Source: Alphaproteobacteria bacterium (lineage in GTDB: Bacteria > Pseudomonadota > Alphaproteobacteria > UBA7887). From it: 64,000 nt of DNA. Below, one piece after another: positions 3,161 through 57,388 of this stretch. Location: assembly GCA_965200095.1 (NCBI GenBank), contig OZ241350.1, forward strand, positions 1,912,215-1,976,214, written 5' to 3'. Positions within the stretch are counted from its first letter, which is position 1, and each line of letters starts with the position of its first letter. A program made the position numbers and the translations under genes. The notes beneath the pieces are model-generated. The model did not search any database and was not told where the DNA came from. It was given only the letters and a program-made list of their open reading frames with translations.

Positions 3161-3561
3161 TACGGTTTCCGGGCGTCGGAGGCGGGCATGCTATGGGGCG
3201 AAAGGCGAGAGCGTCAACGCGCTTGCGCGCCGCCCGGCGCGGCGCTATCGTTGCCGTGTGGCAGCGACGGAGCATGCTCCCGGTTTCAACGCCCTCGCCT
3301 GTGCGCGCAAGCTCAAGACGGCCGATGCCGAAGCCGCGCGCACTATCCGCGACGGCCTGGCCACGAAAGCCCGCCTCGATGCGGGTTTCGACAGTTTCGA
3401 AACAGTCTCGACGCGCGTCTTGCCGCTCTCGCGAAACCCCGGCGCGCCGAACGGATATGGGAAATCCGGTTCGGGATAAGGTTCAATCGCGCTCGCGACT
3501 CCCGGGACAGGACCATGGACCGCAGCGGAACGCCGAACCCCCCGACGCCGGACGCTTGCGC

Positions 3562-6500
3562 ATGTTGACGGCGGAAGAACGGGACGGGCTGGTTTCCGAG
3601 CTCGCGTCGCGTCCCGGCCACGAGAAAGTCCGCGCCTTGCTGCACCGGCTTCTCGTTGGCGGCCTCGGCGCCGACAGCAGGGACATCGATTTCGAGAAAC
3701 CGGCGCCGGAAGTGCGCGGGCGCATCGATGCCCTGCTCGGCCGCACGGTGTTCGAGCTGAAGTCCGATCTGAGGCGCGAACGCCGGGACGCCGAAGACGG
3801 CTTGACGCGGTATCTCTCCGAACGCGAGGCCCGAACCGGCGAGAGCTGGGTCGGCATCGCCACGGACGGCGCGGAATTCGTCGTCTTTTCCCTTCGCGGG
3901 GGCCGCGTCGCGGAGATCGGAACGCATCGCGTGGACCCGGAGGCGACGCGGGCTTCGCTGGCCTGGCTGCAAGGCGCGGTCGCTCTCGGCGAAGAGATTT
4001 TGCCCGATCCGATCGCCGTCGAGCGCGAATTCGGACGCGGGAGCCTGGCCGCGAGGCGCGCCCTCGACGGTCTCGGCGATCTGTGGGGCTGTATCGGACA
4101 AACGCCCGAGGCGCGTCTGAAGCGCGAATTGTGGGGCACGCTGCTGGGCCTTGCCTACGGGGCGGAGGTCGGCGACGACGCCCTGTTCCTGCAACACACC
4201 TATCTCGCCATCGTCGCCAAGTCCGTGGCCGGTGCGGCGATGATCGGCGAGCCGCCCCGCGACGCAGCGGCGCTTCTCCACGGCGCTGCGTTTTCCAACC
4301 TCGGCGTCGGCGGCCAAAGCGAGCCCGACTTCTTCGATTGGGTCCTCGCCGCCGGGGACGGACGGGAACTCGTCATGCGGGTCGCGCGGCAGGTCAACCG
4401 GTTCCGCCTGCGCGATATCGAGGTCGACATCCTCAAGGCGCTTTACGAAAGCCTGATCGACCCCGAGACCCGTCACGATCTGGGCGAATACTATACGCCG
4501 GACTGGCTGGCCGCCCGCATGGTCGCGGCCGCCGTGGACGACCCGCTGACGCAGCGTGTCGTGGACCCGGCCTGCGGTTCGGGGACCTTCCTGTTTCACG
4601 CCATGCGGGCCGTTCTCGCCGCGGCCGGCGCTTCGGGGTTGTCGCCGGCGGCTGCGGCGCGGCTCGCGGCCCGGAACGTCGCCGGGATCGATATCCACCC
4701 GGTGGCCGTGATTTTCGCGCGCGTCACCTGTCTGCTCGCGCTCTTGCCGGCGCTGCGCACGGAACACCCGGGCGATATCGCCCTTCCGGTGTGGCTCGGC
4801 GACGCGCTGCAATGGAATCTGGTCCGAAACGGCGGGAACGGGGAACAGCCCGACCTCCTCGCCGGCGACGACGCGCTGGAAATTTTCGTTCCTGCGGTCT
4901 CGCCGAGCGAACCCGTCCCCCAGCGTCTTGACGCAACGACGCTCCGTTTCCCCGCCGCCGTCGCCTCCGAGACAGGACTTTTCGACCGCGTGCTGAACGC
5001 AATGATCGAGTCCGGGATCGAGTCCGGCGCGCGGTCGGAAATAACCTCCGACTTCGCCGCCTGGCTGGGCGCAAACACGACCGTAGCCGCCGACGACAGA
5101 AAAATTCTATGCGCAACCTGGGAGACGATGCGCCGTCTACAAGGAGAAAACCGCGACCACATCTGGGGCTATGTGGCCCGCAACCTTGCCCGGCCCGTAT
5201 GGCTGGCGTCCGAGGCGCAAAAGGCGGACATCGTGATCGGCAATCCGCCCTGGGTCTCGTTCCGTTACATGAGTCGGGATTTTCAGGAGCGCTTCCGCGA
5301 GGAGTGCCGGGCGGCGCAGCTCTGGGTCGGCGGCAAGGTCGCCACCCAGCAAGATCTTTCGGGATATTTCTACCTGCGCGCGACGGCGCTGTATCTGCGT
5401 CGGACGGGGAGGATCGCCCTGGTCATGCCCTATGCGGCGATGTCGCGCCAAGCCTATGCGAAGTTCCGCGAAGGGCCGGTCGCGCGCGCCGGCTGCGTCG
5501 AATCCCGTCTCCGCTTCACGGCGGCGTGGACGTTCGGGCCGGAAGTGTCGCCGCTTTTCCCGGTTCCGAGTTGCGTGCTGTTCGCCGCCCTTCACGACGG
5601 GCGGGAGCCGGCGCCGCTGCCGGCCCGGGTGACCGCCTTCGCGGGCGCGCTCCCGAAACGGGACGCCGACGCCCGGGAAGCGGACGCGAGTTTGATGGAA
5701 GAGGAGACGACGTGGCCGATGGAGGCGTCGGATCGCGGAGGATCCCCTTACCGGAAAAGCTTTCGGAACGGCGCTATTCTGGTTCCCCGGCGCCTGATAC
5801 TGGTGGAACCCGCGCCGTCGCCGGGGAGGCTTCCGCCCAGCCCTGCCTTTCCGCTGGTCCGGGGGAGGGCGGGCAACCTGGACAAGGCGCCCTGGAGGAC
5901 CATAGAGCCGCCGCGGGGCGCGGTAGAGGCGGCGTTCCTGCGCCCCGTGTTGCTCGGCGAATCCATCGCCCCGTTCCGCGTCCTGGCGCCACTGTGCGCG
6001 GTCATTCCGTGGGACGCCGAACGGGAAGAACTGCTGGACTCGGAACAGGCCGCCGGCCGGGGCTATCGGAGGCTCGCGCGCTGGCTCGAACGAACCGAGG
6101 AATTGTGGGAACAGAACAAGCGCAGCACCTTGACGCTTCTCGAACAATGCGACTATTACGGGAAGTTGTCCGGCCAATTCCCCATTGCCCCGATCCGCGT
6201 CGTGTACACGACGGCCGGGACCAATCTCGCGGCGGCGACGGTCCGGGACAAGACCGCGGTAGTCGATAACAGACTCTATTGGGCTGCCGCCGAAAGCCTT
6301 GACGAAGCCAATTATCTCTGCGGCCTTCTGAACAGCGCCGCCGTGCAGGCCGGCGCGGCGCGCTATCAATCTCAAGGTCAGTGGGGCGCACGGGATTTCC
6401 ACAAATACGTCTTCAACCTGCCGATCCCGCGCTACGACGCCGGCGACGCGCTGCATCGCCGGCTGGCGGACGCGGCTGCGACGGCGGCGGAGGTCGCGGA

Positions 6501-6627
6501 CCGGGTTCCCGAAAGGGAAGGCGAGTATTTCACCCGCACGCGCAAGCGCGTCCGCAACGCCCTCGCCGAGCACGGCGTCGCCGCCCGTCTGGAGAAATTG
6601 GCGGTCGAATTGCTTGACAGGGCATAA
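3562..6627 (+). CDS. Type IIG restriction-modification enzyme (MmeI-like; fused PD-(D/E)xK nuclease and N6-adenine DNA methyltransferase, ~1020 aa)
   Basis: N-terminal D...ELK nuclease-like motif (RIDALLGRTVFELKSDL). SAM-binding motif I DPACGSGTFLFHA and catalytic motif IV NPPW (IVIGNPPWVSF) in the central region. Long C-terminal region consistent with a target-recognition domain. Start set at the ATG at 3562; the ORF opens at 3193. Confidence 0.65.
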   Translation: MLTAEERDGLVSELASRPGHEKVRALLHRLLVGGLGADSRDIDFEKPAPEVRGRIDALLGRTVFELKSDLRRERRDAEDGLTRYLSEREARTGESWVGIATDGAEFVVFSLRGGRVAEIGTHRVDPEATRASLAWLQGAVALGEEILPDPIAVEREFGRGSLAARRALDGLGDLWGCIGQTPEARLKRELWGTLLGLAYGAEVGDDALFLQHTYLAIVAKSVAGAAMIGEPPRDAAALLHGAAFSNLGVGGQSEPDFFDWVLAAGDGRELVMRVARQVNRFRLRDIEVDILKALYESLIDPETRHDLGEYYTPDWLAARMVAAAVDDPLTQRVVDPACGSGTFLFHAMRAVLAAAGASGLSPAAAARLAARNVAGIDIHPVAVIFARVTCLLALLPALRTEHPGDIALPVWLGDALQWNLVRNGGNGEQPDLLAGDDALEIFVPAVSPSEPVPQRLDATTLRFPAAVASETGLFDRVLNAMIESGIESGARSEITSDFAAWLGANTTVAADDRKILCATWETMRRLQGENRDHIWGYVARNLARPVWLASEAQKADIVIGNPPWVSFRYMSRDFQERFREECRAAQLWVGGKVATQQDLSGYFYLRATALYLRRTGRIALVMPYAAMSRQAYAKFREGPVARAGCVESRLRFTAAWTFGPEVSPLFPVPSCVLFAALHDGREPAPLPARVTAFAGALPKRDADAREADASLMEEETTWPMEASDRGGSPYRKSFRNGAILVPRRLILVEPAPSPGRLPPSPAFPLVRGRAGNLDKAPWRTIEPPRGAVEAAFLRPVLLGESIAPFRVLAPLCAVIPWDAEREELLDSEQAAGRGYRRLARWLERTEELWEQNKRSTLTLLEQCDYYGKLSGQFPIAPIRVVYTTAGTNLAAATVRDKTAVVDNRLYWAAAESLDEANYLCGLLNSAAVQAGAARYQSQGQWGARDFHKYVFNLPIPRYDAGDALHRRLADAAATAAEVADRVPEREGEYFTRTRKRVRNALAEHGVAARLEKLAVELLDRA

Positions 6628-6699
6628 CGCTTGCAGACTGTGAACGCGCGCTCAACCCGGGACCGAACAACAGCAATCCGGGCGTTCCGCTCCTTGTCA

Positions 6700-6900
6700 G
6701 CGGCGCTCAACGGATGCGTCGAACGCAACAACGGCGCATGGCGATACGAATTCTACGCGACATGGGACATCCCCGACCACGACCTCGATCGAATCAACCG
6801 CCGGATCGACGCCTTCGCCGACGAGTTCAACGACTTCCGACCCCACAACGCCCTCCACGGACAAACACCGAACAGGCGCCTTCAATCCCTCACAGTAACC
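6700..6900 (+). pseudogene. transposase/integrase-core C-terminal remnant (rve-type; IS481/IS3-like)
   Basis: YEFYATWDIPDHDLDRINRRIDAFADEFNDFRPHNALHGQTPN matches the conserved C-terminal end of DDE integrase-core transposases. No upstream catalytic domain is present. Confidence 0.5.
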
Positions 6901-6999
6901 TCTGCGCAAGGCCCGGATTTTTTCGGGGTCCGGTCGCGCCCGGCGGTTGCCTGTTCGGCTCGACTTCCGGCGGCAGCGCGAGGCGCCTCGATTCGATCC

Positions 7000-8090
7000 G
7001 GCTTGTCGTTGTCCGGACATGTTCGTTCCGCGAAAGAGCGTGTGAAGAAATTGAAAGGCTCCACTAATCTTCGTCATTCCCGCGAAAGAACGTGTGAAGA
7101 AATCGGACGGCTATACAAATACTCGTCATTCCCGCGAAAGCGGGAATCCGTTGCGGCGTTTCCGTAATAAAAACGAGCCGATATAGCGGACGGCCGCCTC
7201 CGGATTCCCGCTTTCGCGGGAATGACGAAGTATTATTCGGTGGGTATTGTCTTTACAATGCCGGCGCTTCGGCGATCCGTACGTCACGATGAGAGACGCC
7301 CGATTTCTTCACACGCTCTTTCGCGGGAGTGGCGAAGTATTGTTCCATATGCGTCGTTATGATCTGTCGGTGAGTTCGGGAGCGTCGTAAAAACGCGGGA
7401 ACGCGATCCTGCGGCAAGCGAAACCGGTTATGCAGAGGTCTCACTTCGTCATTCCCGCGAAAGCGGGAATCCGGAGGCGGCCGTCCGCAATACCGGCCCG
7501 GTTTTCTTTGTGGAGACGACGCAACAGATTCCCGCTTTCGCGGGAATGACGAAGAGTAGTAGCGTCTCTCGATTTCTTCACGCACTCCAAAGCGGGAATC
7601 CGGAGCGGCCGCCCGAAAGACTAATCCGCTTTTTTCTTGCGGAAACACTGCGCCGGATTCCCGCTTTCGCGGGAATGACGAGTGTTTGTAACGCTATTCG
7701 ATTTCTTCACACGCTCTTTCGCGGGAATGGCAAGGTATTATTTGGGCGTTGCCGTCCTTCACTACGGTGATTCTTGAGTTATCCAGCCGTCGTAGTGAGA
7801 GACATCCGATTTCTTCACATGTTCGAAAGCGGGAATTACCGATGCAGGGGCCGGATTCTCGCAATTCCGTCACGCATTGTCGTGCGCCGACGGCGGGTTC
7901 GGAAACGCCGTAAAGCGCCGGGAACGCTATCCTGCCGCAGGCGAAACGGGTTATGCAAAGGTCTTGCACAGTCAACGAGACGCCCACAGATCGCCCCACG
8001 CCCCATATGTCGTGAAGCCGCGCGCCCGCTTGCCGGGACCGGGGACGGGCCATAGGGTGCCCCGCAGGGTCGAATCCGTGAGGGAAGGCG
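7000..8090. repeat. cluster of small interspersed palindromic repeats (REP/Correia-like) with core ATTCCCGCGAAAGCGGGAAT
   Basis: Ten or more copies, in both orientations, of the core palindrome and of a second module TCATTCCCGCGAAAGAGCGTGTGAAGAAATCG. There are no credible ORFs; translations such as SFPRKRESV and IPAFAGMT recur as repeat artefacts. Confidence 0.8.
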
Positions 8091-16059: not shown

Positions 16060-16320
16060 AAAACATCTCGCTATTCTCCATCGTTCCCGCGAAAAAGAGT
16101 GTGAAGAAATCGAACGGCCATACAAATACTCGTCATTCCCGCGAAAGCGGGAATCCATTGCGGCGTTTCCGCAAGAATAAAGACGAATTAGTCTTTCGGA
16201 TGTCCGCTCTGGATTCCCGCTTTCGCGGGAATGACGAAGAGCAGTGCGATCGCTCGATTTCTTCACACGCTCTTTCGCGGGAATGACGAAGTGAGGCGAG
16301 TTTATCCAGTCCCCTCGCAC
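16060..16320. repeat. second cluster of the ATTCCCGCGAAAGCGGGAAT palindromic repeat family
   Basis: Nearly identical to the 7075-7330 element pair, in direct and inverted copies. Confidence 0.8.
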
Positions 16321-16476
16321 ATTATTTCACGGCAATGCCGTCGACTGTCCCTCCGGCCCGATTTCTCCACACACCCTTTCGCGGGAACGAGAGAGTTCCA
16401 GGGTTTCACGGCTTCGGTCTTCCGGCGCGCGGCCTTTTTGCGCCCGTCCCGGTCGCCGGGCGCGCTGCGCATCCTT

Positions 16477-45715: not shown

Positions 45716-48700
45716 ATGATCCGCCGGGCCTGCGGGCTGCTGGCGCTGGCCTTCCTCGCCGCCGCGGCTCTTGCCGTCTTCCCTCGCACGGCAGAGGCGG
45801 TGTGCACCGTTAACGCCGCCACGTCGACCGAGGTAAATTTCAGAGCCTCGGCGATAACCTCCAGTTCAATCACGTTTTCGTGGAATCGGCCGTCATGCGC
45901 CAGCGGCGCCGTCTCATGGCGTGTTACCGGGGCCACCCTGACCGGCGGCGGCAACTGCTGCAGTCATGTGTATGCAGACGGTGGGACCATTTCCTCTTCG
46001 ACCGCGTCCGCGCTTGGATGGACGAAGACCGGGCTGAACGCCAATACGACCTACCACTGGCGGGTGCGTATCGACCAGCCGATCACCGAGCGATCCGACT
46101 TCTTCCCCCATAATGCCCGACTGAGCGTCACGACCAAACAGGCGTCGCCGGGGACTCCGGGCGGCGTGACGGTGACGCCGGGGGTAGGCCAGCTCGCCGT
46201 CTCCTGGACCGCCGCAACCAATGCCGGCGGCTACAAGGTGCAGTGGAAATCCGGTTCGCAAGCTTACGACGCCGCGCGTCAGGCGACAGTCGGCAGCGGA
46301 ACGAGCCACACCATTACGAGCCTGACCGCGGGGACCGTATACACCGTGCGGGTCATCGCGACGCGGACCAACGCCGACGACGGACCCGCCTCCGCAGAGC
46401 GGACCGGAACGCCCAAATACTCGCCGCCGGGGACTCCGGGCGGCGTGACAGTGACGCCGGGGGTAGGCCAGCTCGCCGTCTCCTGGACCGCCGCAACCAA
46501 TGCCGGCGGCTACAAGGTGCAGTGGAAGTCCGGCGCGCAGGCTTACGACGCCGCGCGTCAGGCGACAGTCGGCAGCGGAACGAGCCACACCATTACGAGC
46601 CTGACCGCGGGGACCGCATACACCGTGCGGGTCATCGCTACGCGGACCAACGCCGACGACGGACCCGCCTCCGCAGAGCGAACCGGAACCCCGAAGGCTG
46701 CGCCGCCGGGGACTCCGGGCGGCGTGACGGTGACGCCGGGGGTGGGCCAGCTCGCCGTCTCCTGGACCGCCGCAACCAATGCCGGCGGCTACAAGGTGCA
46801 GTGGAAATCCGGTTCGCAAGCATACGACGCCGCGCGTCAGGCGACAGTCGGGAGCGGAACGAGCCATGCTATTACCGGCCTCACCGCAGGGACCGAATAC
46901 ACCGTCCGGGTCATCGCGACGCGGAGCAATGCCGACGACGGACCCGCCTCCGCAGAGCGAACCGGAACCCCGAAGGCTGCGCCGCCGGGGACTCCGGGCG
47001 GCGTAACGGTGACGCCGGGAGTGGGCCAGCTTGCCGTCTCCTGGACCGCCGCGGCCAATGCCGACGGCTACAAGGTGCAGTGGAAATCCGGCTCGCAGAC
47101 TTACGACGCCGCGCGTCAGGCGACAGTCGGCAGCGGAACGAGCCACGCCATTACCGGCTTGAGCGCGGGGACCGAATACGCCGTGCGGGTCGTCGCGACG
47201 CGAAGCAATGCCGACGACGGACCCGCCTCCGCAGAGCGAACCGGAACGCCGAGGGCCGCGCCGTCGGGGGCGCCGGGCGGTGTGACGGTGACGCCGGGGG
47301 CGGGCCGGCTCGCCGTCTCCTGGACCGCCGTGACCGGCGCCGACGGCTACAAGGTGCAGTGGAAATCCGGCGCGCAGACTTACGATGCCGCGCGTCAGGC
47401 GACAGTCGGCGGCAGCACGAGCCACACTATCACCGGCCTCGCCGCGGGAACCGAATACACCGTGCGGGTCATCGCGACGCGAACCGACGCCGACGACGGA
47501 CCCGCCTCCGCAGAGCGAACCGGAACGCCCAAACAATCGCCGCCGGGGGCGCCGGGCGACGTAACGGTGACGCCGGAGGTGGGCCGGCTCGCCGTCTCCT
47601 GGACCGCCGCGACCGATGCCGACGGCTACAAGGTGCAGTGGAAATCCGGCTCGCAGACTTACGACGCCGCGCGTCAGGCGACGGTCGGCAGCGGAACGAG
47701 CCATGCCATTACCGGTCTGACCGCGGGGACCGAATACACCGTGCGGGTCATCGCGACGCGCAGCAACGCCGACGACGGACCCGCCTCCACAGAGCAAACC
47801 GGAACGCCGACGACAGGCAGGATCGATCTGTCGGCGCCGACTCTCGCCGTGACGGCGGGCGGCGCCGGGGAGACCTACACGGTGGTTCTGGGCGCAGCGC
47901 CGGATGGCGACGTCACCGTCGCAATAGCGAGCGACAACGGCGATGTGACGGCGACTCCCGACAGCCTCTCCTTCACGGCGTCGGACTGGAGCGCGCCGCA
48001 GACGGTGACGTTAACTGCGGCGGCGGACGATGACGGCTACGCCGATATGGCGTCGCTGACGCATACGGCGTCGGGCGGCGGTTACGACGGGGTGACGGGG
48101 ACGCTGCCCGTGGCGGTGACGGGCGACAGCAAGGTGAGGGTGGGCGGCGCGGGCGAGACGGTCTACCGGATCCGCGGTCGGACGGTGACGGTGGCGGTGA
48201 TGCCCGGCACGCCGGCGGGCATTGAGATCGACCTTGCGGACCTGCCCGAAGCGCCTTCGGGCGAGGCTCTGACGCTGACCTTCGCGCCTGTGGCGTCTCC
48301 GGCGGCGAGCGACGCTTTCGCCTTCGGGCCGCCGGAGTCGCGGACCGTTGTGGATGTGACGGTGACGGCGGGGCGCGTTTCGTCTCCGGGTCTGCGTCTG
48401 TGCCTTCCGGTTGCGGATGCGGCGCGGGATGCGGCGCGGGGTCGTCCGTTGCTGTTGCTGCGTTACGACGGCAGCGCCTGGGGCGCGGTCGCCGGGTCTG
48501 CGGCGAGCGCGGACGGGTCGCTTGTGTGCGCCGATGGCGTGTCGTCGTTTTCGCCGTTTGCGGTTGGGTATGCGGACACGGCGCCGTCGTTTGCGGCGGA
48601 TGCGGCCATCGCGGCGCTGGCGTTCACGGCGGGCGAGGCCATTGAGCCTGTGACCTTGCCTGCGGCGACGGGGGGCGACGGGACGTTCTACGAGCTGGGT

Positions 48701-50269
48701 CCGCGGCCATTGGCGCTGCCGCCGGGTCTGGATATCGACGATGCGACGCGGGTTCTTTCGGGGACGCCGACGGAGGCGTTCGCGCAGCGTCGCTACACAT
48801 GGACGGCGACGGACATCGACGGGGAGAGCGATACGCTGTCGTTCACGATGGAGGTGCTGCCGGCGCTTGCGGCGGCGCGGGAGCGTTTGCGGGCGGTGAA
48901 CGAGTCGGTTCTGCCGGAGTTGTCGCGGGCGATGTGGGGGAGCGTCATCGATGCGCTGACGGGGCGCCTTGAGAGCGCGGGTCTTTCGGTCGGCGACGGC
49001 GCGGGCGTCGCGGCGTCGGGTCTTGCGGGGGCTTCGGAGTTCCTGCGGTCGAACGATGGCGCGCCTGGGGCGGGTTCTGGTTCGTGGCGGGAGTTGCTGG
49101 CGGGCGAATCCTTCGTGCTGGGCGTGGGTTCGGAAGCGGGCGGCGGCGGCGGCGGTTCGCCGGTAATGGTCTGGGGTTCGGGGGACTGGCGCAAACTGTC
49201 GCTGGACGATGCGGTTCTGGACTGGTCCGGGGAGTTGCTCTCGGCGCATGCGGGGGTGGATGCGCGGCTTGGCGGGAGTGTTCGCGGCGGCGTTGCGGCG
49301 TCATGGTTCGAGAGTGAGATCGACTACACGGATCGCAGCGGCGAGGCGGCGGTTTCGGGCGTTCACGAGAGCCGGCTGCCGGCGGTGCATCCCTGGGCGG
49401 GGTGGTTCGGCTCGGACGGCTCGCGTCTGTGGGGGGTGCTGGGCTATGGCGAGGGCGAGGTCGAGATAGCGGATGCGGACCTTGCGGAGCGTTTCGGGGT
49501 CCAGAAGAGCGACAGCGCGTTTCTGGCGGCGGCGGCGGGGGGTTCGGTTCCGGTTGCGTCGTCCGGCGTGTTTGCGCTTGCGCTGAAGGGTTCGGGGGAG
49601 GCGACGCGCTATTCGGTGGAGGACAACGGCGCGGCGATTGCGGCGGTGTCTGTGGACACGCAGCGGTTGCGGCTGTCTGCGACGGGCAGCCGGCGCTGGG
49701 TTCTGGCGGACGGCGGGACGCTTACGCCGTCGCTGGAGGCGGGGGCGCGCTGGGACGGCGGCGACGGGGAGACGGGCGCAGGCGTGGAGTTGGGGGGCGG
49801 CGTGGAGTGGACGCTTCCGTCGCATGGCCTGGCGGTTGCGGCGCGGGGCCGGACGCTGGCGGCCCATGCGGGCGCTGCGGAGGAATGGGGCGTGTCGGGT
49901 TCGGCGCGGCTTTCGCCGCCCGGCGGGCGCGGTCTGTCTCTGGCGCTGTCGCCGCGCTGGGGGGCTTCGGACAGCGGCCTGTCGCGTCTGTGGGACGAGG
50001 GCGTTGCGGGGCGCGGGTCTCCGGTCGGCGGAAGCGACGCGGGCGCGGCGGGTCTGGAGGCGGAGTTGGGCTACGGGTTCCGCGAGGGGGCCGGTCTGCT
50101 GACGCCGTCTGCGGGGTTCGGCTACGGGGACGGCGGCGCGCGGCGCTGGCTGGTGGGAACGCGGTTCGAGCTCGGCCCGGCGCTTGCGGTCTCGGTGGCG
50201 ACCGAACGCCGCGACGGCGCCGCCGACGCCGGACACGCCCTCCGCATCGACCTGCGCATGAACTGGTAG
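45716..50269 (+). CDS. giant secreted repeat protein A (1517 aa): signal peptide, 7 FN3-like domains, Calx-beta/cadherin-like and He_PIG-like domains, C-terminal autotransporter-like beta-barrel
   Basis: Signal peptide MIRRACGLLALAFLAAAALAVFPRTAEA. FN3-like units of ~93 aa ending YTVRVIATR. Calx-like segment VTVAIASDNGDVTATPDSLSFTASDW. Helical linker LPALAAARERLRAVNESVLPEL. C-terminus LRIDLRMNW shows an alternating hydrophobic pattern and a terminal Trp. Confidence 0.8.
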   Translation: MIRRACGLLALAFLAAAALAVFPRTAEAVCTVNAATSTEVNFRASAITSSSITFSWNRPSCASGAVSWRVTGATLTGGGNCCSHVYADGGTISSSTASALGWTKTGLNANTTYHWRVRIDQPITERSDFFPHNARLSVTTKQASPGTPGGVTVTPGVGQLAVSWTAATNAGGYKVQWKSGSQAYDAARQATVGSGTSHTITSLTAGTVYTVRVIATRTNADDGPASAERTGTPKYSPPGTPGGVTVTPGVGQLAVSWTAATNAGGYKVQWKSGAQAYDAARQATVGSGTSHTITSLTAGTAYTVRVIATRTNADDGPASAERTGTPKAAPPGTPGGVTVTPGVGQLAVSWTAATNAGGYKVQWKSGSQAYDAARQATVGSGTSHAITGLTAGTEYTVRVIATRSNADDGPASAERTGTPKAAPPGTPGGVTVTPGVGQLAVSWTAAANADGYKVQWKSGSQTYDAARQATVGSGTSHAITGLSAGTEYAVRVVATRSNADDGPASAERTGTPRAAPSGAPGGVTVTPGAGRLAVSWTAVTGADGYKVQWKSGAQTYDAARQATVGGSTSHTITGLAAGTEYTVRVIATRTDADDGPASAERTGTPKQSPPGAPGDVTVTPEVGRLAVSWTAATDADGYKVQWKSGSQTYDAARQATVGSGTSHAITGLTAGTEYTVRVIATRSNADDGPASTEQTGTPTTGRIDLSAPTLAVTAGGAGETYTVVLGAAPDGDVTVAIASDNGDVTATPDSLSFTASDWSAPQTVTLTAAADDDGYADMASLTHTASGGGYDGVTGTLPVAVTGDSKVRVGGAGETVYRIRGRTVTVAVMPGTPAGIEIDLADLPEAPSGEALTLTFAPVASPAASDAFAFGPPESRTVVDVTVTAGRVSSPGLRLCLPVADAARDAARGRPLLLLRYDGSAWGAVAGSAASADGSLVCADGVSSFSPFAVGYADTAPSFAADAAIAALAFTAGEAIEPVTLPAATGGDGTFYELGPRPLALPPGLDIDDATRVLSGTPTEAFAQRRYTWTATDIDGESDTLSFTMEVLPALAAARERLRAVNESVLPELSRAMWGSVIDALTGRLESAGLSVGDGAGVAASGLAGASEFLRSNDGAPGAGSGSWRELLAGESFVLGVGSEAGGGGGGSPVMVWGSGDWRKLSLDDAVLDWSGELLSAHAGVDARLGGSVRGGVAASWFESEIDYTDRSGEAAVSGVHESRLPAVHPWAGWFGSDGSRLWGVLGYGEGEVEIADADLAERFGVQKSDSAFLAAAAGGSVPVASSGVFALALKGSGEATRYSVEDNGAAIAAVSVDTQRLRLSATGSRRWVLADGGTLTPSLEAGARWDGGDGETGAGVELGGGVEWTLPSHGLAVAARGRTLAAHAGAAEEWGVSGSARLSPPGGRGLSLALSPRWGASDSGLSRLWDEGVAGRGSPVGGSDAGAAGLEAELGYGFREGAGLLTPSAGFGYGDGGARRWLVGTRFELGPALAVSVATERRDGAADAGHALRIDLRMNW
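46141..47820 (+). repeat. six near-perfect 279-bp tandem repeats (one FN3-like domain each) inside adhesin A
   Basis: Repeat starts at about 46147, 46426, 46705, 46984, 47263 and 47542. Identity drifts only slightly between copies. Confidence 0.85.
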
Positions 50270-51428: not shown

Positions 51429-54400
51429 TTGGCTTTTCTGTTCGTCGCAGCGGCGCAGCCGGCCGTCGCGGCGGAGTGGATCCATAGCCCGTCTCCGGCG
51501 ATCCTGTATAAAAGCAGCCTGAATAACGCGCAAGTTTATTTGGCGCTGGATGGAAACTCGCCCCGTTTCAAAGTCACCAGCGATCTGAATACAAACAGAA
51601 GCACCTGGTTCGCCTTGTCGGGCGTCCCCAGCGGGGTCACTCTCTCGGTCAGCGCCGTTGTCGGTCAAACCTCGCCGCATCAGGGCGCCTTGTTGACGTT
51701 GAGCTATAGCGGCAATTTCACCAGCGACTGGGTCCTTACGATCACGGTCCCTTCGGCGGCCTTCTTCACAAGGGCGCGCCAGGTGGTCTACACGATCCCG
51801 GTGCAGACGGACAATACGAAAAGCCTGTGGACGGGGGCAGTATCGGGCCAGGCGACGGAAGCCGGGGGACAGGCGACGTTCCCGGTGCGGCTGCGGGCGG
51901 CGCCTTCGCAGGACGTAACCGTGACGGTAACGAGCCGGGATACGGGCGAGGGCTCGGTATCGCCGTCCACGCTCACCTTCAGCTCTTCGAATTGGCACAC
52001 GCCGCAGACTGTGACGGTGACCGGCGTGGACGATAACGTGGACGACGGCACTCAAAACTGGAACGTCCGCCTCGATCCGTCGAGCGCCGATACGACCTAT
52101 AACGGCCTGACGAACGTGGACGTGGCGGTAACCACCACGGACAATGACGCCCTACCGACGGCGACGCTGTCGCTGAGCCAGTCTTCGATTTCCGAGAACG
52201 GCGGTTCTGCGACAGTGACCGCGGCGCTCTCGCATCCGTCGAGTGGGGCGACGGCGCTGACGGTGGCGGCTTCGCCGGGTTCGGGGACGGATTTCACACA
52301 GACGGGAACGACGCTGAACATCGCTGCGGGGGCGACGAGCAGCACCGGAACGGTGACCATCGCAGCAACCAACAATAGCGTCGACGCGCCGGACAAGAGC
52401 GTGACGGTCTCGGCGACGGCGAGCGGGGCCAGCAACGTCGCGAACCCGTCGTCGGTGACGCTGACGCTGACGGACGACGAGGCGGCGCCGACGGCGACGC
52501 TGGCGTTGTCGAACAATTCGATTCCGGAGAACGGCGGGACATCGACGGTGAGCGCGACGCTGTCGCACGCCTCCAGCGCGTCTTCGACGATCACCGTTTC
52601 GACGGGGACGGGGTTCACCCTGGGTTCGGCGACGACGTTGAATATCGCGGCGGGAGCGACGAGCAGCAGCGGGACGGTGACGCTCACGGCGGATAACGAC
52701 AACGTGCATTCGGGAGACCGGTCGGTCACGGTGACGGGTTCGATGGCGAACACCCAGGGCGCGGGTTCCGTGACGGGGGCTTCGTTGACGATCGAGGAAG
52801 ACGAGGCGTTGCCGACGGCGACGCTGGCGTTGTCGCGTTCGAGCATCGACGAGAGCGGGGCGGACGGCGGTTCGACGGTGACCGCCGGCCTGAGCGGCGC
52901 GTCGAGCGAAGCGACGGTGCTGACGGTGTCGACGTCTCCGGGCGCCGACACGGTCGCAGGCGACTTCACGCAGTCGGGAACGGTGCTGACCATTGCGGCG
53001 GGGGAGACGTCCAGCACCGGCGCGGTGACGATCGCGGCCGTGGACAACGATGCCGACACGCCGAACAAGAGCGTGACGGTCTCGGCGACGGCGGCCGGAG
53101 GCAACGGCGTCGCGGATCCGTCCCCCCTGACGCTGACAGTGACGGACGATGAGGGGCCGCCGACGGTGACGCTGTCGCTGTCGCCGCCGTCGATCGACGA
53201 GAACGGGGGCGTGACGCGGGTGTCGGCGACGCTCTCGCGCCCGTCGGCCGTGGAGACGACGGTAACGGTGTCGGCGTCCCCGGGCGCTGACGCGGTTGCA
53301 GGCGACTTCGCCCTGAGTTCGAACAAGACGCTGACCATCGCCGCGGGAGCGACGACCGGCGCCGGAACGGTGACGATCGCGGCCGTGGACAATGATGTCG
53401 ACGCGCCGGACAAGAGCGTGACGGTTTCGGGCGCGGCGTCGAACGCTGTGGCCGAGGCTGCCGGGCAGACCGTGGCCGTGACCGGAGCGACGCTGACGGT
53501 GACGGACGACGACGAGACGGGGATGCTCATCGCGCCGTCGTCGCTCGTCGCGGAAGCGGGCGGCGCCGGGACGGAGTACACGGTCGTACTCGCCAGCGAG
53601 CCCGTCGGCGACGTGACGGTGGCGATAGCGAGCGACTCGGCGGAAGTGACGGTCAGCCCCGACAGTCTTGTCTTCACGGCGTCGGACTGGAGCGCGCCGC
53701 AGACGGTGACGTTAACCGCAGCGGCGGACGATGACGGTTACGCCGATGCGGCGTCGCTGACGCATACGGCGTCGGGCGGCGGTTACGACGGGGTGACGGG
53801 GACGCTGCCCGTGGCGGTGACGGGCGACAGCAAGGTGAGGGTGGGCGGCGCGGGCGAGACGGTTTACCGGATCCGCGGTCGGACGGTGACGGTGGCGGTG
53901 ATGCCCGGCACGCCGGCGGGCATTGAGATCGACCTTGCGGACCTGCCCGAAGCGCCTTCGGGCGAGGCTCTGACGCTGACCTTCGCGCCTGTGGCGTCTC
54001 CGGCGGCGAGCGACGCTTTCGCCTTCGGGCCGCCGGAGTCGCGGACCGTTGTGGATGTGACGGTGACGGCGGGGCGCGTTTCGTCTCCGGGTCTGCGTCT
54101 GTGCCTTCCGGTTGCGGATGCGGCGCGGGATGCGGCGCGGGGTCGTCCGTTGCTGTTGCTGCGTTACAACGGCGACGCCTGGGGCGCGGTCGCCGGGTCT
54201 GCGGCGAGCGCGGACGGGTCGCTTGTGTGCGCCGATGGCGTGTCGTCGTTTTCGCCGTTTGCGGTTGGGTATGCGGACACGGCGCCGTCGTTTGCGGCGG
54301 ATGCGGCCATCGCGGCGCTGGCGTTCACGGCGGGCGAGGCCATTGAGCCTGTGACCCTGCCTGCGGCGACGGGGGGCGACTGGACGATCCACGAGCTGGG

Positions 54401-55970
54401 TCCCCGGCCATTGGCGCTGCCGCCGGGTCTGGGTTTCGACCGTGACACGCGGGTTCTTTCGGGGACTCCGACGGAGGCGTTCGCGCAGCGTCGCTACACA
54501 TGGACGGCGACGGACATCGATGGGGAGAGCGATACGCTGTCGTTCACGATGGAGGTGCTGCCGGCGCTTGCGGCGGCGCGGGAGCGTTTGCGGGCGGTGA
54601 ACGAGTCGGTTCTGCCGGAGTTGTCGCGGGCGATGTGGGGGAGCGTCATCGATGCGCTGACGGGGCGCCTTGAGAGCGCGGGTCTTTCGGTCGGCGACGG
54701 CGCGGGCGTCGCGGCGTCGGGTCTTGCGGGGGCTTCGGAGTTCCTGCGGTCGAACGATGGCGCGCCTGGGGCGGGTTCTGGTTCGTGGCGGGAGTTGCTG
54801 GCGGGCGAATCCTTCGTGCTGGGCGTGGGTTCGGAAGCGGGCGGCGGCGGCGGCGGTTCGCCGGTAATGGTCTGGGGTTCGGGGGACTGGCGCAAACTGT
54901 CGCTGGACGATGCGGTTCTGGACTGGTCCGGGGAGTTGCTCTCGGCGCATGCGGGGGTGGATGCGCGGCTTGGCGGGAGTGTTCGCGGCGGCGTTGCGGC
55001 GTCATGGTTCGAGAGTGAGATCGACTACACGGATCGCAGCGGCGAGGCGGCGGTTTCGGGCGTTCACGAGAGCCGGCTGCCGGCGGTGCATCCCTGGGCG
55101 GGGTGGTTCGGCTCGGACGGCTCGCGTCTGTGGGGGGTGCTGGGCTATGGCGAGGGCGAGGTCGAGATAGCGGATGCGGACCTTGCGGAGCGTTTCGGGG
55201 TCCAGAAGAGCGACAGCGCGTTTCTGGCGGCGGCGGCGGGGGGTTCGGTTCCGGTTGCGTCGTCCGGCGTGTTTGCGCTTGCGCTGAAGGGTTCGGGGGA
55301 GGCGACGCGCTATTCGGTGGAGGACAACGGCGCGGCGATTGCGGCGGTGTCTGTGGACACGCAGCGGTTGCGGCTGTCTGCGACGGGCAGCCGGCGCTGG
55401 GTTCTGGCGGACGGCGGGACGCTTACGCCGTCGCTGGAGGCGGGGGCGCGCTGGGACGGCGGCGACGGGGAGACGGGCGCAGGCGTGGAGTTGGGGGGCG
55501 GCGTGGAGTGGACGCTTCCGTCGCATGGCCTGGCGGTTGCGGCGCGGGGCCGGACGCTGGCGGCCCATGCGGGCGCTGCGGAGGAATGGGGCGTGTCGGG
55601 TTCGGCGCGGCTTTCGCCGCCCGGCGGGCGCGGTCTGTCTCTGGCGCTGTCGCCGCGCTGGGGGGCTTCGGACAGCGGCCTGTCGCGTCTGTGGGACGAG
55701 GGCGTTGCGGGGCGCGGGTCTCCGGTCGGCGGAAGCGACGCGGGCGCGGCGGGTCTGGAGGCGGAGTTGGGCTACGGGTTCCGCGAGGGGGCCGGTCTGC
55801 TGACGCCGTCTGCGGGGTTCGGCTACGGGGACGGCGGCGCGCGGCGCTGGCTGGTGGGAACGCGGTTCGACCTCGGCCCGGCGCTTGCGGTCTCGGTGGC
55901 GACCGAACGCCGCGACGGCGCCGCCGACGCCGGACACGCCCTCCGCATCGACCTGCGCATGAACTGGTAG
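51429..55970 (+). CDS. giant secreted repeat protein B (about 1513 aa from TTG): 5 Calx-beta-like domains plus the shared Calx/He_PIG/linker/beta-barrel module; apparently phase-OFF
   Basis: Calx-beta-like units [25 protein letters not shown]...NIAAGATSSTGTVTIAA...DKSVTVSATA. The last ~900 aa are near-identical to protein A and end LRIDLRMNW. The in-frame ORF begins only at TTG 51429, in the middle of a signal-peptide h-region. The ATG at 51373 (MSPLN-polyP) is out of frame by one C. Confidence 0.75.
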   Translation: MAFLFVAAAQPAVAAEWIHSPSPAILYKSSLNNAQVYLALDGNSPRFKVTSDLNTNRSTWFALSGVPSGVTLSVSAVVGQTSPHQGALLTLSYSGNFTSDWVLTITVPSAAFFTRARQVVYTIPVQTDNTKSLWTGAVSGQATEAGGQATFPVRLRAAPSQDVTVTVTSRDTGEGSVSPSTLTFSSSNWHTPQTVTVTGVDDNVDDGTQNWNVRLDPSSADTTYNGLTNVDVAVTTTDNDALPTATLSLSQSSISENGGSATVTAALSHPSSGATALTVAASPGSGTDFTQTGTTLNIAAGATSSTGTVTIAATNNSVDAPDKSVTVSATASGASNVANPSSVTLTLTDDEAAPTATLALSNNSIPENGGTSTVSATLSHASSASSTITVSTGTGFTLGSATTLNIAAGATSSSGTVTLTADNDNVHSGDRSVTVTGSMANTQGAGSVTGASLTIEEDEALPTATLALSRSSIDESGADGGSTVTAGLSGASSEATVLTVSTSPGADTVAGDFTQSGTVLTIAAGETSSTGAVTIAAVDNDADTPNKSVTVSATAAGGNGVADPSPLTLTVTDDEGPPTVTLSLSPPSIDENGGVTRVSATLSRPSAVETTVTVSASPGADAVAGDFALSSNKTLTIAAGATTGAGTVTIAAVDNDVDAPDKSVTVSGAASNAVAEAAGQTVAVTGATLTVTDDDETGMLIAPSSLVAEAGGAGTEYTVVLASEPVGDVTVAIASDSAEVTVSPDSLVFTASDWSAPQTVTLTAAADDDGYADAASLTHTASGGGYDGVTGTLPVAVTGDSKVRVGGAGETVYRIRGRTVTVAVMPGTPAGIEIDLADLPEAPSGEALTLTFAPVASPAASDAFAFGPPESRTVVDVTVTAGRVSSPGLRLCLPVADAARDAARGRPLLLLRYNGDAWGAVAGSAASADGSLVCADGVSSFSPFAVGYADTAPSFAADAAIAALAFTAGEAIEPVTLPAATGGDWTIHELGPRPLALPPGLGFDRDTRVLSGTPTEAFAQRRYTWTATDIDGESDTLSFTMEVLPALAAARERLRAVNESVLPELSRAMWGSVIDALTGRLESAGLSVGDGAGVAASGLAGASEFLRSNDGAPGAGSGSWRELLAGESFVLGVGSEAGGGGGGSPVMVWGSGDWRKLSLDDAVLDWSGELLSAHAGVDARLGGSVRGGVAASWFESEIDYTDRSGEAAVSGVHESRLPAVHPWAGWFGSDGSRLWGVLGYGEGEVEIADADLAERFGVQKSDSAFLAAAAGGSVPVASSGVFALALKGSGEATRYSVEDNGAAIAAVSVDTQRLRLSATGSRRWVLADGGTLTPSLEAGARWDGGDGETGAGVELGGGVEWTLPSHGLAVAARGRTLAAHAGAAEEWGVSGSARLSPPGGRGLSLALSPRWGASDSGLSRLWDEGVAGRGSPVGGSDAGAAGLEAELGYGFREGAGLLTPSAGFGYGDGGARRWLVGTRFDLGPALAVSVATERRDGAADAGHALRIDLRMNW

Positions 55971-56980: not shown

Positions 56981-57388
56981 GCCGCTTCGTCTACCCCCGG
57001 CATCGGAGACTGTCAAGCCGCTTGCGCTCCCGGCGGTTCCCGTCGCGGCGACCGGCGCCGCTCGCCGCATCCGGCAGGCGTCGGCGCGGCAGGCGGGCGC
57101 CCCGGCCGAACCGCCGGATTTTTTCACGCGGTCCTTCGCAGAACGAGCATATCGGAGCAACGACAACCCGTATCGAACCGGGGCGCCCGCTCATCCTGTC
57201 GTCGTCTCGCGACACCGCCGGAAGTCCGCTCGAACAGGCGAGCGCCGGGCCGTGACCGGCCCCCCCCCGAAAAATCCGGGCGTTATGCAGGAGTTCCGAC
57301 GCGCAATTCGCTCCCGGCTTGCGCCGGCGGCGAACGCCGCTATGCTGCGCGTTCTCCGATGCGGAAGCGACCCGCAAAAGGCATCCCC

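Follow-up and report, generated by a model that had tools for sequence, protein, structure and literature searches.

A predicted self-sufficient, single-chain Type IIG restriction-modification gene in an alphaproteobacterial genome: domain architecture, relatives and locus history

DrdV of Deinococcus radiodurans (PDB 7LO5/7LVV), a restriction-modification (RM) enzyme of Type IIL, consists of a nuclease, a connector, a methyltransferase (MTase) and a target-recognition domain (TRD) in one chain of 1029 amino acids, without a companion MTase (bioRxiv 10.1101/2021.01.06.425610). The MmeI family (Type IIL; PDB 5HR4) is built in a similar way, as a single polypeptide with an N-terminal PD-ExK nuclease, a gamma-class MTase and a C-terminal TRD; its PD-(D/E)xK residues are arranged as E51/D70/E80/K82, and its genes have neither a flanking MTase nor consistently flanking genes (PMC2731913). 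The monomeric Type IIG enzymes of the Eco57I/BpuSI/BseRI type, in contrast, are accompanied by one or two companion MTases (PMC3874165). The PglX (BrxX) proteins of bacteriophage exclusion (BREX) systems work together with PglZ, BrxC, BrxL and further proteins, lack the PD-ExK nuclease at the N-terminus, and formed the nuclease-less set of homologues in the MmeI study (PMC2731913), whereas LlaGI and LlaBIII, enzymes of Type ISP, carry a RecA-type helicase/translocase in a chain of about 1500 residues. Here we describe an RM gene at positions 3562-6627 of a 64-kb window, which is the whole stretch of DNA analysed (contig OZ241350.1, 1,912,215 to 1,976,214), from an Alphaproteobacteria bacterium. 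The original prediction, made from the letters alone, had read it as a stand-alone, MmeI-like Type IIG gene acquired horizontally and flanked by a transposase stump and palindromic repeats. Our analysis indicated, with a probability of roughly 80%, that its product is a Type IIG enzyme that works by itself as a single chain, in the style of Type IIL, that is, one protein without a companion methylase. This reading is supported by the domain architecture, by catalytic residues that are conserved, by purifying selection on the gene, by its mobility and by the lack of partner genes.

The RM gene was contained in an open reading frame (ORF) at 3193-6627 on the plus strand. The upstream part of this frame (3193-3561) had a codon-position pattern typical of non-coding DNA, with a GC content higher at second positions (GC2, 0.69) than at third positions (GC3, 0.68), whereas from the ATG at 3562 the GC1/2/3 values were 0.72/0.51/0.81, a coding pattern. 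Because the extension was non-coding in composition and the homologues were 1015-1021 residues long, the start was assigned to the ATG at 3562. The gene was intact, ended with TAA at 6625-6627 and encoded 1021 residues, in agreement with the single polypeptide of about 1020 residues that had been predicted. Its features were as follows.

3562-6627, plus strand: RM enzyme gene, Type IIG/IIL-like, single chain, intact, 1021 residues
3489-3561, plus strand: 5' leader moving together with the gene, 73 bp, 93% identical at a second locus (L007)
3562-3996, plus strand: predicted N-terminal PD-(D/E)xK nuclease domain, residues 1-145 (model topology and residue conservation)
3694-3696, 3727-3729 and 3754-3762, plus strand: candidate catalytic residues E45, D56 and E65-L-K67 (alignment and model)
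3997-4401, plus strand: all-helical connector, residues 146-280 (135 residues; helices at 150-278 in the model)
4402-5481, plus strand: predicted gamma-class N6-adenine MTase domain, residues 281-640, with motifs I, II and IV
4558-4593, plus strand: VVDPACGSGTFL, residues 333-344, spanning motif I (from the sequence)
4564-4593, plus strand: MTase motif I, DPACGSGTFL (from the sequence)
4792-5166, plus strand: family-specific insert of about 125 residues, residues 411-535, between MTase strands 3 and 4 (motifs III/IV), where the Eco57I model match is stretched
5242-5253, plus strand: MTase motif IV, NPPW (within GNPPW), residues 561-564 (from the sequence)
5482-6624, plus strand: putative C-terminal TRD, residues 641-1021 (about 380 residues), including a TaqI_C-type "LNS" element at 6316-6339

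The structure of the protein was modelled with AlphaFold from an input alignment of 61 diverse sequences (29-76% identity), which gave a predicted local distance difference test score (pLDDT) of 88.1 and a predicted template modelling score of 0.75; an earlier model built from 32 close homologues had a pLDDT of 59 and was set aside as unusable. The model showed the nuclease, the helical connector, the Rossmann MTase and a β-rich C-terminal domain ending in long helices, in that order. The nuclease domain, with pLDDT above 90 for most of residues 1-140, had the topology α-α-β-β-β-α-β-β-β-α, and residues E45, D56 and E65/K67 were located on strands 1, 2 and 3, respectively. This modelled placement of E45/D56/E65/K67 was the arrangement given for MmeI E51/D70/E80/K82 (PMC2731913). 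In the 61-sequence alignment, D56, E65, Y84 and D102-G103 were invariant and E45 and K67 were at least 90% conserved, so that the nuclease-like D...ELK motif noticed originally (D56, E65-L-K67) was retained across the family, and all four residues of the MmeI arrangement had conserved equivalents. The spacing between D and ExK was 8 residues, compared with 9 in MmeI and 14 in DrdV, and both this protein and MmeI carried an upstream glutamate (E45 and E51, respectively). When the N-terminal 150 residues of 32 family members were scanned singly against Pfam, 19 of the 32 matched MmeI_N weakly and below threshold (best 7e-5) and six matched HSDR_N, with scattered matches to further PD-(D/E)xK families. 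A profile of the N-terminus gave a single match among PDB sequences, a weak one to the nuclease NucS (E 0.29), in which the ExK motifs were aligned. Compared with the syntenic orthologue at a related locus (L008), the ratio of nonsynonymous to synonymous substitution rates (dN/dS) was 0.28 for the whole gene and 0.20 for the nuclease domain, which was conserved to the same degree as the TRD. Taken together, these results indicate a genuine nuclease domain on which selection acts. Since family members sharing as little as about 30% identity retain the nuclease residues, the protein is predicted not to be a plain MTase, the outcome that had been named as counting against the original prediction.

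The MTase motifs DPACGSGTFL and NPPW were found as originally described, with D377 as the acidic residue of motif II, and residues D335, G339-S340-G341, D377, N561, P563 and W564 were invariant in the alignment. Two Pfam models scored above cutoff in this domain, N6_Mtase (50.3 bits) and Eco57I (37.4 bits), and the best PADLOC model was REase_MTase_IIG (1.2e-73), with an aligned portion covering only residues 238-637. No ATPase or helicase Pfam match was found in the protein; the interval between the nuclease and the MTase was the 135-residue helical connector, unlike the ATPase-bearing Type ISP enzymes. The C-terminal residues 641-1021 corresponded to the long TRD proposed before. As in the MmeI family, this TRD diverged gradually along with the rest of the protein and was not swapped. 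By sequence and model, a nuclease, a gamma-class N6-adenine MTase and a TRD, as required of a Type IIG enzyme, were thus found in one chain.

The MTase domain appeared to contain an additional subdomain. Motif I (residue 335) and motif IV (residue 561) were separated by about 220 residues, and positions 2-150 of the Pfam Eco57I model were spread over residues 372-636; because of this gap and the stretched match, residues 411-535 were assigned as an insert. It was the least conserved segment of the protein, with a mean pairwise identity of 26%, and it contained the sole sizeable low-confidence loop within the first 700 residues (residues 422-435, pLDDT below 50). An insert of this kind was present in the family of the window gene but not in DrdV.

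The homologue search revealed 3839 matches at E≤1e-5 among 8000 scored candidates, and the top 120 homologue clusters were all 64-92% identical across 100% of the length. An exhaustive search of a representative library gave 6265 matches at E≤1e-3, including 1263 at E≤1e-30, and its relatives were collinear along about 1000 residues down to about 31% identity; full-length homologues thus number in the thousands. The family profile reached relatives among PDB sequences through the MTase core only, with the following matches.

CamA: E 7e-11
Type I HsdM: E about 4e-10
DrdV: E 1e-8 (1.3e-8)
BsaXI: E 3e-8
PglX: E 1e-7
MmeI: E=8e-5, confined to about 80 residues

In Foldseek searches, PglX, MmeI, CamA, BseCI, BpuSI and DrdV fell within a narrow band of E-values, with global template modelling scores of 0.2-0.3; these low global scores resulted from domains that were oriented differently. 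Structure comparison gave the following pairs of values.

M.BseCI: 14.3; 226
DrdV: 13.4; 398
CamA: 13.2; 243
MmeI: 13.1; 355
PglX: 12.9; 408
LlaBIII: 12.6; 442
BpuSI: 11.6; 198

DrdV was the closest described enzyme in size and layout, but the two proteins shared only 12-16% identity over the structural alignment, and their sequence similarity was limited to the MTase core. Full-length similarity to the MmeI family was not found in the window protein: MmeI_Mtase missed its cutoff of 27 bits with a score of 25.0, and MmeI_N, MmeI_hel, MmeI_TRD and MmeI_C gave no match. On these sequence and model comparisons, the protein falls into the wide class of enzymes that combine a gamma-MTase with a TRD and has the Type IIG/IIL domain order, and MmeI is no nearer to it than are DrdV, PglX and a Type ISP enzyme. 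The label "MmeI-like" therefore held for the architecture but not for the family, since the MmeI-specific Pfam models were absent or below cutoff and the structure searches placed DrdV, MmeI, PglX, CamA and LlaBIII equally far away.

The surroundings of the gene were examined for partners. Family scans of the 64-kb window, together with the Pfam labels of the syntenic genes at L008, revealed no second MTase gene and no gene of BREX or of DISARM (defence island system associated with restriction-modification), as had been stated for the nearby genes; the other genes were of housekeeping character (dioxygenase, Fur, rubrerythrin, FtsK, amidase, CoA ligases, aminoacyl-tRNA synthetase and aminotransferases), together with two giant surface proteins. 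Neighbours were then clustered from every ORF of at least 100 residues within 8 kb on either side of the homologue in 80 genome loci. The clusters present in more than 12 of the 80 loci were only shadow ORFs overlapping the RM gene or lying at its edges, and the largest genuinely separate neighbour cluster was found in 12. No MTase, helicase or BREX gene (PglZ, BrxC, BrxL) recurred around the homologues in the 80 loci, and three homologue loci on long contigs had neighbours that were all different. Full-length relatives with 35-46% identity stood alone on two complete plasmids, the 13.7-kb pDK5 of Rhodococcus and the 24-kb pCGR2 of C. glutamicum; a literature search on pCGR2 found nothing relevant. 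In the linked DNA covered here (window, 80 loci and complete small plasmids), the family therefore conformed to the Type IIL pattern of an enzyme without a companion MTase, and the description as a stand-alone Type IIG gene was borne out.

Several observations weigh against the reading as a self-sufficient restriction enzyme. To our knowledge, no member of the family has been characterised biochemically. The N-terminus of the window protein itself reached no nuclease Pfam model, the best match being Tox-REase-9 (E 0.039), and the nuclease assignment was therefore carried by the family as a whole. In fold searches with the whole chain, the MTase domain governed the matches and masked the nuclease domain. 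The check for a companion methylase in the source genome covered the 64-kb window. Disrupted homologues were found in about 9% of the loci (L058, L063, L073, L077, L081, L086 and L087), with frameshifts, an in-frame stop in L073 and an insertion of about 4.7 kb near residue 900 in L077 (10634-15316), whereas 73 of the 80 loci were uninterrupted; these disruptions are consistent with occasional gene decay or with assembly errors in metagenome-assembled genomes (MAGs). In addition, a Rhizobium plasmid carries a collinear homologue with 38% identity under the label "restriction endonuclease BseRI", although this label is an unverified annotation.

That label bears on an alternative which we regard as unlikely, namely that the gene encodes a Type IIG enzyme in the style of Eco57I, BpuSI and BseRI, whose own methylation protects one strand only while a separate MTase elsewhere in the genome protects the host. 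The Eco57I methylase model above cutoff is in line with this, companion MTases are on record for monomeric Type IIG enzymes (PMC3874165), and on the plasmid of Rhizobium sp. Q54 (L004, 9428-12846) the labelled homologue adjoins a gene for a 945-residue MmeI_Mtase/Eco57I-like protein. However, this neighbour carries a C-terminal Xre/MbcA/ParS antitoxin domain and is directly followed by a gene for a RES-domain toxin, an unusual MTase-antitoxin fusion which, because of this domain and this neighbour, was read as a separate toxin-antitoxin module; it is not an m4C-gamma fusion like M.BseRI. Neither the window nor the 80 homologous loci contained a linked companion, no MTase recurred among the neighbours, and the complete 13.7-kb and 24-kb plasmids carried the homologue without any other MTase. 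It is also improbable, and rather more so, that the protein acts mainly as a solitary adenine MTase in epigenetic regulation with a vestigial or inactive nuclease domain. The homologues are annotated publicly just as "N-6 DNA methylase", the gene is fixed at one chromosomal locus in two related genomes, and the N-terminus taken alone gave no significant nuclease match. Against this stand the invariance of D56 and E65 and the near-invariance of K67 and E45 in so diverged a family, the dN/dS of 0.20 in a nuclease domain as conserved as the TRD, and the confident folding of the PD-(D/E)xK core.

Two further alternatives concern membership in a described family. A bona fide MmeI-family member, cutting at 20/18 and sharing the MmeI TRD code, would explain the domain order, the isolated gene, the D-X8-ExK motif with an upstream glutamate resembling MmeI E51...D70-X9-E80-x-K82 (PMC2731913) and the weak MmeI_N matches of 19 of the 32 N-termini. 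Among nine family members scanned, moreover, several scored above the MmeI_Mtase cutoff (P0128, 41.7 bits; P0253, 31.8 bits; P0236, 29.8 bits). Given the MmeI-specific models, silent or below cutoff for the window protein, this assignment is considered very improbable. We give hardly any credence to the view that the gene supplies the MTase/specificity subunit, of the PglX or MAD2 kind or similar, to a defence system of several genes such as BREX, with the remaining genes located outside the window. PglX was among the top structural matches, and weak matches to the PglX and MAD2 models were obtained, but the NCBIfam models for PglX of BREX-1, 2, 5 and 6 reached only 15-35 bits, and these models taken together with MAD2 of MADS only 15-41 bits, against cutoffs of 400-900 and in the MTase motif I region only. 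The window protein keeps the nuclease motif that PglX-type proteins lack (PMC2731913), which is conserved in its family; PglZ, BrxC, BrxL and helicase genes were neither present in the window nor recurrent in the 80 loci, and homologues occur alone on small complete plasmids. The comparison with PglX profiles that had been proposed as a check thus argued against PglX, on account of the scores far below cutoff and the lack of a recurring partner gene.

The preferred reading, a self-sufficient Type IIG enzyme, allows a mechanism to be proposed by analogy with DrdV and MmeI (bioRxiv 10.1101/2021.01.06.425610; PMC2731913). The C-terminal TRD would bind a short, probably asymmetric DNA site, and the gamma-class MTase, using S-adenosylmethionine, would flip one adenine of this site and methylate it at N6 on the host DNA. 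On incoming phage or plasmid DNA, where several unmethylated sites could be brought together, the enzymes may oligomerise through their helical connectors, and the N-terminal PD-(D/E)xK domain (E45, D56, E65, K67; presumed to be Mg2+-dependent) would then cut at a fixed distance from the site. A more tentative proposal, possible but doubtful, is that the family forms a distinct, so far uncharacterised Type IIL lineage spread across phyla, comprising more than 1000 sequence clusters and defined by the subdomain of about 125 residues between MTase motifs III and IV. If so, this subdomain, which evolves fastest within the protein and on which apparent recombination has acted most, could set a new cleavage geometry or mode of oligomerisation, or present a decoy surface to the anti-restriction proteins of phages, and the family could supply new recognition specificities.

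The history of the locus was examined by comparison with the related locus L008, which was collinear with the window on both sides of the RM gene, with 95-96% of the DNA letters identical. Both loci carry, in this order, dioxygenase, the RM gene, Fur, rubrerythrin, CCG protein, DUF3501, glyoxalase and LolA, and sequence comparison indicates that the RM gene already lay between fur and the dioxygenase gene before this 95%-identical relative split off. The flanking proteins were 99-100% identical (synonymous divergence, dS, 0.03-0.08), whereas the RM protein was only 92% identical. Along the RM gene (window 3562-6627 versus L008 5859-8912), the dS was mosaic, at about 0.19 for residues 1-280, 0.47 for residues 411-535 and 0.04-0.07 for residues 536-830, the greatest divergence thus lying in the insert. 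This pattern looks like a partial replacement by recombination with a diverged allele, and not like uniformly fast evolution.

Evidence for the movement of the gene was obtained from more distant loci. The 87% identical homologue at L007 had an unrelated context: the shared flank was only the 73 bp directly upstream of the ATG, beyond which the similarity ended, and nothing was shared in the remaining 100 bp or so of the contig downstream. The relocated unit was therefore essentially the ORF with a short leader. Copies with 66-67% identity were found in MAGs of Candidatus Entotheonella, Binatia and Thalassobaculaceae and copies with 47-52% identity in Chloroflexota, and many alphaproteobacterial copies were just 43-50% identical. 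The GC3 of the RM gene (0.81) was lower than that of the host genes (0.87 ± 0.018). This cross-phylum distribution, the differing contexts, the low GC3 and the relocation of the gene with its 73-bp leader make the horizontal spread of the family across phyla well supported. Entotheonella is a sponge symbiont, and its copies hint at exchange within a shared habitat. A search for an empty site by way of Fur in metagenome contigs returned only relatives with identities of at most 58%, which were too distant to define such a site.

The region downstream of the gene contained two further features.

6664-6879, plus strand: rve-type (IS481/IS3-like) transposase, degenerate remnant of its C-terminus, outside the RM unit
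7028-7970, no strand assigned: cluster of palindromic repeats resembling repetitive extragenic palindromes and bacterial interspersed mosaic elements, core ATTCCCGCGAAAGCGGGAAT, about 0.95 kb, absent at the L008 site

The frame starting at 6631 matched rve_3 with its residues 23-80 (nucleotides 6697-6870; E=3.8e-10) over the last 56 positions of the model, and the IS481/IS3 models likewise matched it only at their C-terminal ends. It was about 40% identical to transposase C-termini over residues 12-83, and on this sequence evidence the frame is taken as a genuine transposase stump, as had been predicted. The first 50 bp or so of the stump were common to L008 and the remainder was absent there. 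About 90 bp after the RM stop were shared by the window and L008 and already entered the transposase-like frame, so that the insertion sequence remnant abutted the RM gene in the common ancestor; L008 has probably lost the rest of it. In L008, Fur started about 260 bp past the RM stop, and window positions of about 6717-8025 were replaced by about 95 bp. Because the gene occupies this site in L008 too, in the absence of both, the repeat cluster and most of the stump represent an indel that is independent of how the RM gene arrived. The horizontal acquisition proposed originally was thus supported by the distribution, contexts, composition and moved unit of the gene, but not by the repeat cluster, and the cluster itself, dense as described, was somewhat shorter than the 1.1 kb given for it.

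Within the cluster, ATTCCCGCGAAAGCGGGAAT occurred in five copies of alternating orientation where none was expected. The same repeat family was found at window positions 16071-16390, with two copies of ATTCCCGCGAAAGCGGGAAT at 16135-16232, and at L008 39-186. Two segments of about 90-170 bp (families D2 and D6) recurred between 7275-7441 and 7781-7964 with a spacing of 506-523 bp and an identity of 72-76%, indicating that the cluster grew partly by segmental duplication of about 0.5 kb. A copy of ATTCCCGCGAAAGCGGGAAT was also observed at L028 7707-7738, about 260 bp upstream of an RM homologue in a MAG labelled Binatia, which is odd for another phylum and may reflect mis-binning or shared mobile DNA. 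Positions 6902-7030, between the stump and the first palindromes, were 68% similar to 57141-57290 on the opposite strand, about 50 kb away, and may be another dispersed repeat.

Other elements of the window were also inspected. No sigma-70 promoter and no convincing terminator were found flanking the RM gene, the counts of candidates being close to the expectation from shuffled sequences, and an Rfam scan of the whole window gave no RNA family. An upstream ORF of 17 codons (MDRSGTPNPPTPDACAC) was located at 3511-3568, its TGA overlapping the RM start (ATGTTGA); L007 and L008 conserve this ORF, L001 has a similar one, and L003, L009 and L011 lack it. It was rejected as a meaningful element and is probably incidental, since the overlap simply follows from the M-L-T start and the ORF is missing from these three loci. 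Farther downstream, two giant ORFs were arranged in tandem on the plus strand (45716-50269 and 51429-55970; 1517 and 1513 residues), the second with LapA and Calx-beta matches. Their C-terminal 810 residues or so were 96% identical and their N-terminal halves were unrelated; this looks like two surface or adhesin-type proteins, recently duplicated or recombining, whose passenger regions have been swapped.

Taken as a whole, the gene is of an ordinary sort among those that defend against phages, encodes a system of a known kind and belongs to a large and apparently uncharacterised family. It opens no new biological question and mainly corrects the reading of the repeat cluster and the label "MmeI", which is better understood as a Type IIG/IIL architecture in a separate family. 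For the host, it would provide one more barrier against phages and plasmids and is a likely source of an N6-methyladenine motif in the methylome. For enzymology, a large family that is easily cloned, with one gene and no partners, could contribute new specificities or cut distances to the toolbox of restriction enzymes, as happened with the MmeI family.

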